NCBI GenBank assembly: GCA_029856525.1
Contig: JAHQXC010000076.1
Span: 1 to 5,676 of the forward strand
Reading direction: 5' to 3'
DNA length: 5,676 bases
Origin: Candidatus Odinarchaeia archaeon
GTDB lineage: Archaea; Asgardarchaeota; Odinarchaeia; Odinarchaeales; Odinarchaeaceae
This document shows, piece after piece, positions 2,988 to 5,676 of this stretch. Under the pieces are notes generated by a model. That model was not told the origin of the DNA. It saw only the letters and a program-made list of their open reading frames with translations, and did not search any database. Within the stretch, counting starts at the first letter, position 1, and every line of letters begins with the position of its first letter. Made by a program: the position numbers and the translations under genes.

Positions 2988-3016
2988 TATTCAAGTAATT
3001 TACTGAAGTGATTTTA

Positions 3017-3499
3017 ATGGCTAAAACCCTATTAGTTTTTTATTCAAGGAAGGGTAAAACTAAGACTGTGGCTGAGGAAACATCTAAATTACTAAACTGT
3101 GATTTAGAGGAGATAATTGACCTTAAAAAGCGAACAGGTATACTAGGCTTTTTAGGAGCAGGCAGAGACGCTTTTCTAAAAAAGAAAACTAGTATTAAGG
3201 AGCCTGAGAAAAATCCAGGTGAATATAACTTACTGATAATAGCTTCACCTGTATGGGCTGGGAATCTGCCTCCAGCTATTAGAACTTACATTGAACGATT
3301 CCAAGCCCAGCTCCCCCAGCTTGCTTTAATCGGAACATGCGGTTTTAAAGGTAACAGCTCTAAAATAGCGGTTGAAATAGAGAAAATCACCGGTAAAAAA
3401 CTTATCGCAACAGTTGAAGTCACTGCTAAAGAGGTTTCCGAAAACAATTATAAAGATAAGATTCAAGATTTTGTAAATAATTTGAAGCCTATCATGTAA
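3017..3499 (+). CDS. Flavodoxin-like protein (short-chain, flavodoxin_4 type)
   Basis: N-terminal strand plus loop LLVFYSRKGKT, then YNLLIIASPVWAGNLPPAIRTYI (the G/S-x-P-V-W FMN-stacking loop). ATG at 3017 is preceded by RBS-like AGTGA (3007-3011), so I prefer it to GTG at 3008. Confidence 0.85.
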   Translation: MAKTLLVFYSRKGKTKTVAEETSKLLNCDLEEIIDLKKRTGILGFLGAGRDAFLKKKTSIKEPEKNPGEYNLLIIASPVWAGNLPPAIRTYIERFQAQLPQLALIGTCGFKGNSSKIAVEIEKITGKKLIATVEVTAKEVSENNYKDKIQDFVNNLKPIM

Positions 3500-3526: not shown

Positions 3527-4081
3527 TTAAGCGTAAATCTCCAGCTCTGTCAGCATTTTATCAAGTTTATTAACCGCTTCCTGAACATCTGTCTCCTTCT
3601 TCGCACCTGTGCATACGATTCTACCTGAACAGAATAATAGGAAAACAACTTTCGGATGTTTAGCTCTATATATTAGTCCTGGAAATTGCTCAGGCTCGTA
3701 AAGCGCGTCTTCAAGCGTGAGAGAGGCGACCTCTAAATCCAGTCTAGCACCTAGATTACCTGAAGCTACTATATTTTGAATCTGAATTTTAGGTTCGCTT
3801 TTAATTTCGATGCCTGCGCTTTTAATTTTCTCTATAACCTTGGCAACCACTGTAGGAGCATCCTCCTCTCCTCTGAGACCTGTGACAACCATTTTACCTG
3901 TATTAAAAACCAGTATAGCGGCTTTAGGCTCTGTTAACCGTAGAACTAAACCGGGGAACTGAGATGGATCATATTCAGCTTCAGAAATATTATTCGAAAG
4001 CTTGTTAAGGTCTATTCTATCATCTAAACTCACAGATGCTACAACGTTTTCAACTTTATAAGTTATCTCTCTTTTACTCAT
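3527..4081 (-). CDS. tbp: TATA-box-binding protein (archaeal TBP)
   Basis: Two direct TBP repeats: ENVVAS...YDPSQFPGLVLRLTEPKAAILVFNTGKMVVTG and QNIVAS...YEPEQFPGLIYRAKHPKVVFLLFCSGRIVCTGAK. Start placed at ATG 4081 (MSKREITY..., 184 aa), which has GGTG just upstream, rather than 4111. Confidence 0.97.
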   Translation of the reverse strand: MSKREITYKVENVVASVSLDDRIDLNKLSNNISEAEYDPSQFPGLVLRLTEPKAAILVFNTGKMVVTGLRGEEDAPTVVAKVIEKIKSAGIEIKSEPKIQIQNIVASGNLGARLDLEVASLTLEDALYEPEQFPGLIYRAKHPKVVFLLFCSGRIVCTGAKKETDVQEAVNKLDKMLTELEIYA

Positions 4082-4115
4082 GTAGAACACCGTAACATCA
4101 CAATTATTCACAAGA

Positions 4116-4183: not shown

Positions 4184-4327
4184 ATTTAACTCAGAGCCCC
4201 CTATCTTTAAATGTTTAAGGTGAGTGAACTCTATCAACCTTTTTTAGATATAAGACCGGTATTTTAACCAACCTATTCGAGTTGAAGCAGCTATACCAGG
4301 TTTATAACCATAGACAGGTCATCTAGA

Positions 4328-4385
4328 CAATAAAGTTAAATAATAAATCGATATATGTTAACGCGATTACAGGTAGACGCGGTGA
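4328..4385 (+). promoter_or_regulatory. Candidate BRE/TATA promoter and RBS for the HhH-eL33 gene
   Basis: Purine-rich CAATAAAG (4328-4335) directly followed by TTAAATA (4336-4342). GGTGA at 4381-4385 lies 5 nt before ATG 4391. Confidence 0.55.
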
Positions 4386-4390
4386 GATAG

Positions 4391-5041
4391 ATGGCAGAGG
4401 ATAAAACTCCGCTAAGCGAGGTTAAAGGGTTAAGTAAAAAGACGCTTGAAAAACTGGGGAAAGCCGGTATCAAGACACTTGGAGAATTATCTGAGTATAG
4501 TTTAGACGAGCTTCAGAGCAAGATCCCTGATTTAAGTAAAACTACTCTCAAACGTTTATTAGATAAAGTTAACGAGTTGAAAGCTCAGCCTGTTATAGCT
4601 GAGAAACCGGTGGAGGAGGCTAAAGCTGGCAAAGGTAAACCAGCTGGGAAAACTTCTAGAAAGATGAGCGGTAAGAAGAAACCGGTTAAAGCTGAGAAGA
4701 GTGAAATCGAGGTTAAATCTGAAAAACCTGCGAAGACTCCTAAAACAAGGAAGCCTAAGATCTCTGCGAAACCATCTGAACCTGTGAGAAGAATTATTGG
4801 AAGAGTATACTCTTTTGAAAGAGGGGGTGCTAGAATATCTAACAACAAGGTTTTAGCCCGTATACTAGATTCTTCAAAGAAAATAGAAGAGTTGATAGGC
4901 GCTCGAATTCTATTAAAATACGGGCGGGATATCACTGTTAAAGGTAAAATAATAGGTAAACACGGCAACAAGTCGAATGTTAAAATCAGACTGGATAAGC
5001 CTGTATCAACAGCGGTTTTAAACGCCACCGTCTACATGTAA
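4391..5041 (+). CDS. rpl35ae: Fusion protein: tandem helix-hairpin-helix domain + Lys/Pro-rich linker + ribosomal protein eL33 (L35Ae)-like domain
   Basis: aa 6-63 (PLSEVKGLSKKTLEKLGKAGIKTLGEL...IPDLSKTTLKRLL) follows the HHH_5-like two-HhH pattern. aa 64-132 is low complexity. aa 133-216 (IIGRVYSFER...NNKVL...LIGARILLKY...VKGKIIGKHGNKSNVKIRLDKP...L.ATVYM) aligns by eye with archaeal L35Ae as I recall it (G.V.SYRR...NN.M...LIG..V.W....GKI.R.HG..G.VRARF.K.LP..ALG..V). Confidence 0.78.
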   Translation: MAEDKTPLSEVKGLSKKTLEKLGKAGIKTLGELSEYSLDELQSKIPDLSKTTLKRLLDKVNELKAQPVIAEKPVEEAKAGKGKPAGKTSRKMSGKKKPVKAEKSEIEVKSEKPAKTPKTRKPKISAKPSEPVRRIIGRVYSFERGGARISNNKVLARILDSSKKIEELIGARILLKYGRDITVKGKIIGKHGNKSNVKIRLDKPVSTAVLNATVYM

Positions 5042-5042
5042 T

Positions 5043-5164
5043 TTTAACTTTATCAGCGGGAAACCTCTGTGAAAGCGAGGGGAGAGAGCCCTTACCCGTC
5101 TTATTTAATAACCGTCACAGTAAGATCTTTCGCAAGCTTTACTGTAAGAGTGTAAAAAGTTAAA
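5043..5164 (+). ncRNA. Candidate structured RNA element of unknown class, in the 3' region of the eL33 fusion gene
   Basis: 5056-5100 is 28/45 G+C in an AT-rich context. Stems: GCGGG/CCCGT (5056-5060/5095-5099); CCTC-T-GT-GAAA-GC-GAGG (5064-5080); ACAGTAAG...TTTACTGT (5117-5145); closing TTTAACTTT/AAAGTTAAA (5043-5051/5156-5164). No match to an RNA family I recognise. Confidence 0.35.
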
Positions 5165-5252
5165 TGCGGTAAATTATCATTGAATTTTTAGAGCTCTTAG
5201 AGTACATGACTTTGAGCCGCTGCAGTTAAAGTGTAATCCAGTGATTATATTG

Positions 5253-5364: not shown

Positions 5365-5676
5365 TCAAGTAATAGTTTTCGACGCGATTAAAAAATAATG
5401 ATATGGGTATACATCATAGTTTTTTACTTTGAAAGCATATCTGATAAGTGTTTTTTCAACTTCTCCCATACTTATTCTATCTTCTACGGGAGGCCCTAGC
5501 GGTGTATCATCCTTTTTCCAGTCTATGATAACTAGTATACTCGTGTTTTCAGCAGCCCATTTAATATATTCTTCGAAATCGTTTAGTTCATGTAGAACAT
5601 TCGAGAATAATATTAAGTTTAAGCTTTCACCTATGTGAGGCGGTTTATCAGTGTGAATAAACACTATGTTCTGGAT
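5365..5676 (-). CDS. Class I SAM-dependent methyltransferase, C-terminal part (5' end lies outside the window)
   Basis: The frame is open from the window edge (IQNIVFIHTD...). LNLILFSNVLHEL matches the D-x-(I/V)-x-x-x-x-V-L-H-E strand/helix, and LVIIDWKKDDTPLGPPVEDRIS matches the DW...GPP...R motif of small Methyltransf_11/31-like enzymes. The SAM-binding GxGxG motif is not in view. The track's start at 5664 is an internal GTG. Confidence 0.8.
   Translation of the reverse strand: MQNIVFIHTDKPPHIGESLNLILFSNVLHELNDFEEYIKWAAENTSILVIIDWKKDDTPLGPPVEDRISMGEVEKTLIRYAFKVKNYDVYPYHYFLIASKTIT

Follow-up and report, generated by a model that had tools for sequence, protein, structure and literature searches.

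A helix-hairpin-helix domain tethered to a diverged eL33-type barrel in Odinarchaeum, a candidate arm of the archaeal 50S subunit

In its canonical archaeal form, the large-subunit protein eL33 (L35Ae) is a stand-alone polypeptide of ~87-100 aa. In yeast, eL33 occupies a solvent-facing position in the 60S subunit, at the junction of ribosomal RNA (rRNA) domains II and VI, where it makes direct contacts with eL32, eL6 and uL13, and eL20 belongs to the same domain II/domain VI cluster (PMC9700599). That a helix-hairpin-helix (HhH) domain can be appended to a ribosomal protein is already known from eL32: the chains of this protein in the solved haloarchaeal ribosomes (234-241 aa; 9l94_Q, 234 aa; 1jj2_X and 3cma_Y, 240 aa) have at their N-terminus an HhH domain that can be aligned with residues 5-55 of the Asgard eL32 protein P0018, and the dedicated L32e model of NCBIfam (PRK12766, 238 positions) matched an HhH stretch with its positions 3-53. 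Here we describe a gene in which such a domain is joined to eL33 instead. It lies on the forward strand (4391..5041) of a stretch of 5,676 nucleotides, called the window in the following, that forms positions 1 to 5,676 of contig JAHQXC010000076.1 of a Candidatus Odinarchaeia archaeon (assembly GCA_029856525.1). An earlier, sequence-only reading of the window had named the haloarchaeal eL32 as a precedent for the arrangement, and the three chains named above bear this out.

The reading that we favour, and hold to be probable on the basis of the sequence comparisons and the structure model, is that this gene is the Odinarchaeum orthologue of eL33 and that its product would display a mobile, nucleic-acid-binding arm from within the 50S subunit. 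New with respect to the eL32 precedent are: i) the complementary distribution of the arm over eL32 and eL33; ii) the conserved synteny with tbp, the gene encoding the TATA-binding protein; iii) the degenerate hairpins; iv) the fast-evolving barrel; and v) the coincident non-detection of eL20. Our literature searches yielded no paper that describes an HhH-eL33 fusion or discusses the HhH on eL32, nor one that characterises the function of the latter.

Three-part architecture and identity of the barrel

The open reading frame (ORF) runs uninterrupted over 216 codons and a stop (protein P0001) and comprises: a tandem HhH domain, (HhH)2, at aa 1-65 (4391..4585, +), a disordered linker rich in Lys, Pro and Glu at aa 66-130 (4586..4780, +) and a diverged eL33/L35Ae beta-barrel with a net charge of +13 at aa 131-216 (4781..5038, +). 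The sequence-only reading had proposed the same 216-aa architecture at essentially these coordinates, with a flexible linker of ~65-70 aa between the two domains, and it was confirmed. The AlphaFold2 (AF2) model of the full protein, for which the input alignment consisted of 28 sequences with eL33 homologues among them, contains two confident domains (residues ~10-65 and 133-216; predicted local distance difference test score, pLDDT, >88 and mostly >90), and within the linker the pLDDT falls below 50 at residues 73-105. The linker contains 18 Lys, 8 Pro and 8 Glu residues and has a net charge of +12. Its identity among the four genomes of the genus is 42-62%, and its composition is kept while the sequence drifts.

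Full-length orthologues (214-216 aa, 65-74% identity) are present in the three congeneric genomes; one of these orthologues is that of Candidatus Odinarchaeum yellowstonii, which places the window in the genus Odinarchaeum. Comparison of the four genes (Nei-Gojobori) gave dN/dS ratios of 0.06-0.18 (HhH domain), 0.18-0.38 (linker) and 0.08-0.19 (barrel). The whole ORF is under purifying selection, which is strong on both folded domains, and the HhH domain is constrained as much as the ribosomal domain. A chance ORF or a mis-joining of two genes was ruled out by these ratios and by the full-length conservation in four plus two genomes.

By homology, predicted fold and orthology, the C-terminal part belongs to the eL33 family, though it scores under the curated cut-offs. 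The Pfam model Ribosomal_L35Ae (PF01247) matched residues 137-215 over positions 5-93 of its 95 (18.5 bits, E 2.3e-3; cut-off 27), and the L35ae equivalog model of NCBIfam (PRK04337) matched residues 134-214, or 125-216 at the widest (36.9 bits, E 2.7e-9; cut-off 85). In a phmmer search of the PDB sequences, residues 134-206 matched residues 2-76 of Pyrococcus furiosus eL33 (4v6u_Bc, 1sqr_A; E 9.4e-5 to 1.3e-4). AF2 models residues 133-216 as a six-stranded barrel of the eL33 type (pLDDT 88-95), and all of the 50 best Foldseek matches of the model in the PDB are eL33 chains, the best being those of P. furiosus (9qf4_Bc, TM 0.77, rmsd 2.4 Å; 34% identity over the 84 aligned columns of the fold alignment) and Thermococcus kodakarensis (6skg_Bf, TM 0.81); this fold match depends partly on the sequence evidence, given the eL33 homologues in the alignment from which the model was built. 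When aligned with the stand-alone eL33 proteins of Asgard archaea, the barrel has kept the residues that are nearly invariant in the family (G137, G145, G170, G185, H191 and G192).

The assignment to eL33 is further connected to the genomic surroundings. In the genome that contains the window (G000, 1.32 Mb, 93% complete), and likewise in the closed 1.4-Mb congeneric genome G002, the fusion ORF is the only PF01247-like sequence, and a second, canonical eL33 gene was found in neither. The genomes G005 and G006, of the sister family within the same GTDB order, encode fusions of 208 and 213 aa that have the same architecture, align over aa 4-212 at 30-32% identity and carry barrels scoring 53-54 bits on PF01247, compared with 17-21 bits in the Odinarchaeum clade. 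The barrel of a further order-mate, P0033, scores 28.9 bits, and those of P0034 and P0005/P0006 are likewise above the cut-off. Because these order-mates, with which the Odinarchaeum protein has architecture and synteny in common, pass the PF01247 cut-off, membership of the eL33 family appears to extend transitively to the Odinarchaeum barrel. In comparison with the archaeal eL33 structures (1SQR, 4V6U/9QF4 chain Bc, 6SKG chain Bf), the barrel is alike in fold (TM 0.77-0.81), in sequence, in its nearly invariant Gly/His positions and in being the sole homologue detected in its genome. It differs in making up only the last third of a longer, 216-aa protein, in scores that do not reach the cut-offs of Pfam and NCBIfam and in substitutions within the YRRG and G-x-V-R-A-x-F motifs.

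In a 2023 review both eL33 and eL20 are entered as 'unknown' for Odinarchaeota (PMC9932298); of these two we found eL33 for Odinarchaeum and did not find eL20 in the four genomes of the genus. The Odinarchaeum copies of the fusion have been annotated only as 'HhH domain-containing' or 'RNAP alpha CTD domain-containing', and the annotation gap would be closed by taking this gene as the eL33 of the lineage. Relatives with a canonical, less diverged barrel have been automatically annotated as '50S ribosomal protein L35ae', so that the fusion is already present in databases. This touches on one of the objections that the sequence-only reading had raised against itself, namely that the fusion might be a well-annotated and common form; it is, however, neither a described form nor a common one.

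The N-terminal domain was matched by the Pfam model HHH_5 (PF14520) at residues 8-59 with 29.3 bits, against a cut-off of 27, and with 32.3 bits in a six-frame search of the genome. Of the two per-segment profile matches that had been anticipated from the sequence, this one was thereby obtained in full, and PF01247 did fall on the anticipated segment but remained under its cut-off. The model RNA_pol_A_CTD, for the C-terminal domain (CTD) of the alpha subunit of RNA polymerase (RNAP), also matched the HhH part (E 2.9e-4). In the full AF2 model, as well as when aa 1-70 were folded alone, the domain has four helices (16-24, 30-34/35, 38-44 and 50-65) in an (HhH)2 arrangement, which superposes on the N-domains of RadA, Rad51 and RAD51C, on NusA AR2 and on RNAP alpha-CTD (TM 0.73-0.83, rmsd 1.2-2.5 Å, sequence identity 17-29%), with the weak E-values (0.009-0.2) that are expected at ~60 aa. 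What is common to these proteins is the small helical fold; the ATPase, KH/S1 or polymerase context of RadA/Rad51, NusA and RNAP alpha-CTD is missing here and the HhH is joined to a ribosomal protein.

The hairpins of the domain deviate from the usual GhG pattern: in the alignment, the first one reads G13-L-S and the second one D47-L-S, with the first Gly replaced by Asp. A G-h-S first hairpin occurs in the N-domains of the Rad51 family. The relatives P0005/6, P0038, L054 and L055 have canonical GVG/GIG hairpins in both motifs, and nucleic-acid binding is therefore likely to be the ancestral property of this domain, and less certain to have been retained in the Odinarchaeum genus. The domain is nearly neutral (net charge +2), and its surface has changed very little within the genus.

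Distribution of the arm over eL33, eL32 and eS25

Every eL33 that was found in the sampled genomes of the order of Odinarchaeum is fused to an HhH domain, and its gene usually adjoins tbp; one genome of the order (82% complete) yielded no eL33 match. Within Odinarchaeia the fusion is present in the genus itself, in P0032 (224 aa), P0033 (191 aa) and P0034 (175 aa, with a linker of ~25 aa) and in the sister family (P0005/P0006). Outside the order it was recovered in two further Asgard families: f4, with proteins of 241-255 aa that have canonical hairpins and an (AEPK/KPK)n linker (P0038, labelled 'Heimdallarchaeaceae'), and f14, with proteins of 360-395 aa and a linker of ~220-270 aa. The length of the linker therefore ranges between lineages from ~25 aa (P0034) up to ~220-270 aa (P0008, L053). 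The HhH-eL33 proteins of f2, f4 and f14 (P0005/6, P0034, P0038, P0008, P0013) have the three-part architecture in common with the Odinarchaeum protein, and the synteny with tbp and a radical SAM gene is common to the Odinarchaeia members among them. They differ in their hairpins, which are canonical GhG in most relatives and GLS/DLS in Odinarchaeum, and in their barrels, which are canonical in f2 and P0034 and strongly diverged in Odinarchaeum, f4 and f14.

In most of the remaining Asgard families, eL33 stands alone, at a length of 87-101 aa. In the maximum-likelihood tree of the barrels, all extended forms are placed outside a moderately supported clade of these stand-alone forms. A single clade of all HhH fusions was not rejected (approximately unbiased test, p 0.265), a result that with 86 residues and long branches is weak either way. 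The eL33 proteins of family f12 (L031, L039, L057, L008, L009; P0042) have an N-terminal extension of another kind, 40-110 aa long, rich in Lys, Ala, Pro and Thr, of (AKPK)n type and without an HhH. The size of the rRNA element ES39, which is short (50-60 nt) in Odin and Thor and long in Heimdall lineages (PMC7594248), was considered as a correlate of the arm and discarded: Heimdall lineages with a long ES39 have the eL33 fusion as well, and there is no clean pattern.

The same kind of arm was recovered on two other ribosomal proteins by profile search. These included: N-terminal HhH-linker-eL32 proteins (P0007, P0014, P0018, P0021 and P0024, one of them labelled Thorarchaeota) and eS25-linker-HhH proteins (P0020 and P0027, from metagenome-assembled genomes labelled Thor- and Promethearchaeia). 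The C-terminal parts of the long-form bL21 and bS2 models were also matched by an HhH-rich query. In P0014, P0018, P0021 and P0024 the HhH lies at residues 6-60 and L32e at ~140-250, a domain order and spacing that resemble those of the Odinarchaeum fusion. When P0018 was used as the query against 121 Asgard genomes, full-length HhH-eL32 was recovered only in family f6, which is apparently Thorarchaeota, and there in all 17 of the 17 genomes; the open frames are 247-390 aa long and some have two to three HhH copies (e.g. G092:C17:9352-10140 and G086:C1:65336-66127). The eL33 of f6 stands alone (94 aa) and the eL32 of the Odin order lacks the HhH, which makes the distribution complementary; in the genome of the window, the HhH is present neither on eL32 nor on eS25.

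The likeness between the Odinarchaeum fusion and HhH-eL32 (haloarchaea; P0018 and P0046 in Asgard f6) lies in the succession of an N-terminal (HhH)2, a low-complexity linker and a large-subunit ribosomal protein domain. The linker of Asgard HhH-eL32 is rich in Lys, like that of the Odinarchaeum fusion, whereas that of haloarchaeal eL32 is acidic, and the HhH and linker of the sister-family fusion in G006 are 42% identical to those of P0018 over ~130 aa, a value inflated by low complexity. The carrier of the arm differs, being eL32 (PF01655) in haloarchaea and f6 and eL33 in Odinarchaeum, where eL32 is encoded by a separate gene of 223 aa.

If the contact between eL33 and eL32 that is seen in yeast holds in archaea, the Odin order and f6 would display the arm from one surface patch by means of alternative anchor proteins. 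The eL20/LX family (PF01775) scored above its cut-off in 112 of the 121 Asgard genomes, including all three of the sister family, but in none of the four Odinarchaeum genomes (G000-G003; 93-98% complete, one closed), and a search of these with the eL20 protein of the sister family as the query yielded nothing; eL20 has either been lost in the genus or diverged past detection. The eL32 of the genome containing the window (L040:1450-2121, +; contig C7 of G000) consists of a canonical L32e domain followed by a C-terminal, low-complexity tail of ~95 aa rich in Glu and Lys, and in all four congeneric genomes the eL32 open frame is 224-238 aa long. The neighbour of eL33 is thus extended in this genus too, but at the opposite end. 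Since a diverged eL33 barrel, an undetected eL20 and a tailed eL32 coincide in one genus, these comparisons suggest that the domain II/VI patch of the large subunit has been remodelled, and the fast-evolving barrel and undetectable eL20 in particular point to a remodelling that is local.

A putative ribosomal arm and its alternatives

According to the reading that we favour, the barrel (aa ~131-216) would be incorporated at the position usual for eL33, on the solvent-exposed face of the 50S subunit, and the N-terminus would project from there as a polycationic, disordered tether of ~65 aa with (HhH)2 at its end. The mobile arm would bind the backbone of duplex nucleic acid in a manner that is not sequence-specific. 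Its preferred target may be duplex RNA on or near the ribosome, i.e. the rRNA helices of the domain II/VI region, and its role may be in early assembly or in stabilisation of the 50S subunit, which is plausible where the neighbouring eL20 is undetectable. Binding in trans, to DNA or mRNA, we infer to be a close second to such binding of rRNA in cis. That the arm is a ribosomal feature at all is argued for by the eL32 parallels in f6, by the eL32-eL33 contact in yeast, by the presence of haloarchaeal HhH-eL32 in solved ribosomes and by the eS25-HhH fusions.

Several observations weigh against this reading. The barrel stays under both curated cut-offs (18.5 vs 27 bits for PF01247, 36.9 vs 85 bits for PRK04337) and is placed on a long branch (1.27) of the maximum-likelihood tree. 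Its usual motifs are altered: YRRG to FERG, LPGQ to VSTA and G-x-V-R-A-x-F to S-N-V-K-I-R-L; with respect to the family motif used for comparison, G-K-I-x3-H-G-x2-G-x-V-R-A-x-F, the Gly preceding V-R-A is Ser195 and the VRA-F portion reads VKIRL. Ribosome binding may have been altered or lost through these substitutions, and numerous archaeal lineages do without eL33 (Table 1 of PMC9932298), which is therefore not a universally essential protein. The same observations would be accounted for by a neofunctionalised eL33 that has left the ribosome in the Odinarchaeum clade and acts as a free nucleic-acid-binding protein, in chromatin or as an RNA chaperone, composed of the HhH domain, a basic tail and an RNA-binding barrel: by its PF01247 score the barrel is far more diverged than that of the sister family, its branch is long, several conserved positions have been replaced, and a loss of the whole ribosomal patch would agree with the non-detection of eL20, a neighbour in the cluster. 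We consider such a departure from the ribosome improbable. The barrel is under strong purifying selection, has kept the glycines and the His of the family together with its high positive charge, and still retrieves ribosomal eL33 by sequence and by fold; moreover, the orthologues at the same locus grade into canonical barrels (P0033, and further P0034 and P0005/6), and the parallel HhH-eL32 fusions keep ribosomal protein domains that are fully canonical.

The arm itself raises further points against the favoured reading. A linker of ~25 aa in one lineage and of up to ~270 aa in another runs counter to one fixed docking path on rRNA, and it would suit a tether that reaches out better than a fixed rRNA clamp. 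The protein could then be a 50S component whose arm works in trans on chromosomal DNA, on nascent or structured mRNA or on the transcription machinery, by which ribosomes would be kept near the nucleoid or translation would be coupled to transcription. Links of ribosomes to nucleoid, nascent mRNA or RNAP had also been put forward in the sequence-only reading, next to a part in subunit assembly. Duplex DNA backbones are the typical ligand of (HhH)2 domains, with the N-domains of RadA/Rad51, the HhH of Y-family polymerases, NusA AR2 and RNAP alpha-CTD as the closest folds, and Lys-rich linkers and those of AKPK type resemble polycationic DNA-binding tails. In some entries of the Haloarcula marismortui 50S subunit, the eL32 chain has 142-143 of its 240 residues, which fits an HhH that is undocked, though as weak evidence. 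Yet the sequence data single out neither DNA nor mRNA nor RNAP as the partner, hairpin 2 is degenerate in the genus in a domain that is nearly neutral, and tbp, though a conserved neighbour, is transcribed divergently and not as an operon partner; we regard a tether between ribosome and template as possible, but on the whole as rather doubtful.

The Asp that replaces the first Gly of hairpin 2, together with the occurrence of NusA AR2 and RNAP alpha-CTD among the fold matches, means that the arm may not bind nucleic acid. Both of these domains act largely via protein contacts. A degenerate (HhH)2 could accordingly serve to dock proteins, and recruit a factor for assembly, hibernation, targeting or quality control to the solvent-exposed 50S surface, a proposal with which the RNA_pol_A_CTD match and the very strong conservation of the HhH surface within the genus would agree. 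The two canonical GhG hairpins in the relatives (P0005/6, P0038, L054, L055) suggest that the ancestral function was nucleic-acid binding instead, and neither a candidate partner nor a conserved operon partner was identified, so that we hold protein docking to be distinctly improbable.

A broader and speculative extension of the favoured reading, to which we would give little credence, is that the ribosomes of Asgard archaea bear an interchangeable HhH-arm cassette, composed of (HhH)2 and a polycationic tether, that is mounted on eL33, eL32 or eS25 and confers a conserved activity so far unrecognised. Examples of such an activity may be the coupling of ribosomes to DNA, RNAP or mRNA, or the bridging of ribosomes to each other, and in Odinarchaeum the arm may be accompanied by a domain II/VI patch that has been remodelled and is without eL20. 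Irrespective of its activity, the same module, of a nucleic-acid-binding type and on long, charged tethers, has repeatedly extended large- and small-subunit ribosomal proteins in Asgard archaea, to which eukaryotes are more closely related than to any other known prokaryotes, and what an arm mounted on the domain II/VI patch would reach is a concrete and testable question for ribosome structural biology.

Gene start and surrounding locus

The sequence upstream of the fusion gene was aligned for the four congeneric genomes and contains two conserved elements. The stretch GCGGTGA (4379-4385) is invariant shortly before the first ATG and includes a Shine-Dalgarno-like GGTGA at 4381..4385 (+), 5 nt before the ATG. 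Further upstream, in the intergenic region between tbp and the fusion gene, an A/T-rich block of 32 nt at 4326..4357 (+), GACAATAAAGTTAAATAATAAATCGATATATG, is mostly invariant while its flanking sequence is not conserved. The block is probably a promoter region with BRE/TATA elements that is shared with the divergent tbp gene, and GCGGTGA is probably the ribosome-binding site of the fusion gene. An internal start that would yield a stand-alone eL33, as the sequence-only reading had allowed for, was examined and rejected: the only internal Met (M92) and a GTG at V132 are not conserved in the orthologues and are not preceded by a Shine-Dalgarno-like site. Because the HhH domain matches the barrel in its low dN/dS, the Shine-Dalgarno-like site and promoter are conserved and the internal starts are not, expression of the full-length protein is plausible and a conserved, short, internally started eL33 unlikely. 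A search for sequencing runs that contain the stretch 4200-5200 listed the probable source metagenome and no RNA data set.

The tbp gene (3527..4111, -; Pfam TBP, E 7e-57) is the divergent neighbour of the fusion gene and forms part of its context, not of the fusion protein. The two genes are also head-to-head in L007, and the order radical SAM, tbp (-), fusion (+) characterises the window and L050/L051 (P0034) and is partly preserved in L007; the conserved tbp neighbour supports the orthology of the locus. No RNA gene was detected in the window with Rfam (at E<=1) and ARAGORN. The stop codon is followed at once by a GC-rich stem-loop region (5043-5164), for which Rfam gave no match at E<=1 and whose sequence is not preserved across the four genomes of the genus; it was not treated as part of the fusion feature. 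The window further contains: a truncated ORF without a Pfam match (5365-5676, -), a coiled-coil protein of 425 aa with a possible C-terminal winged helix (45-1322), a flavodoxin-like protein (3008-3499) and the radical SAM enzyme of 535 aa (1380-2987), which is syntenic with tbp and the fusion gene in another lineage of Odinarchaeia.

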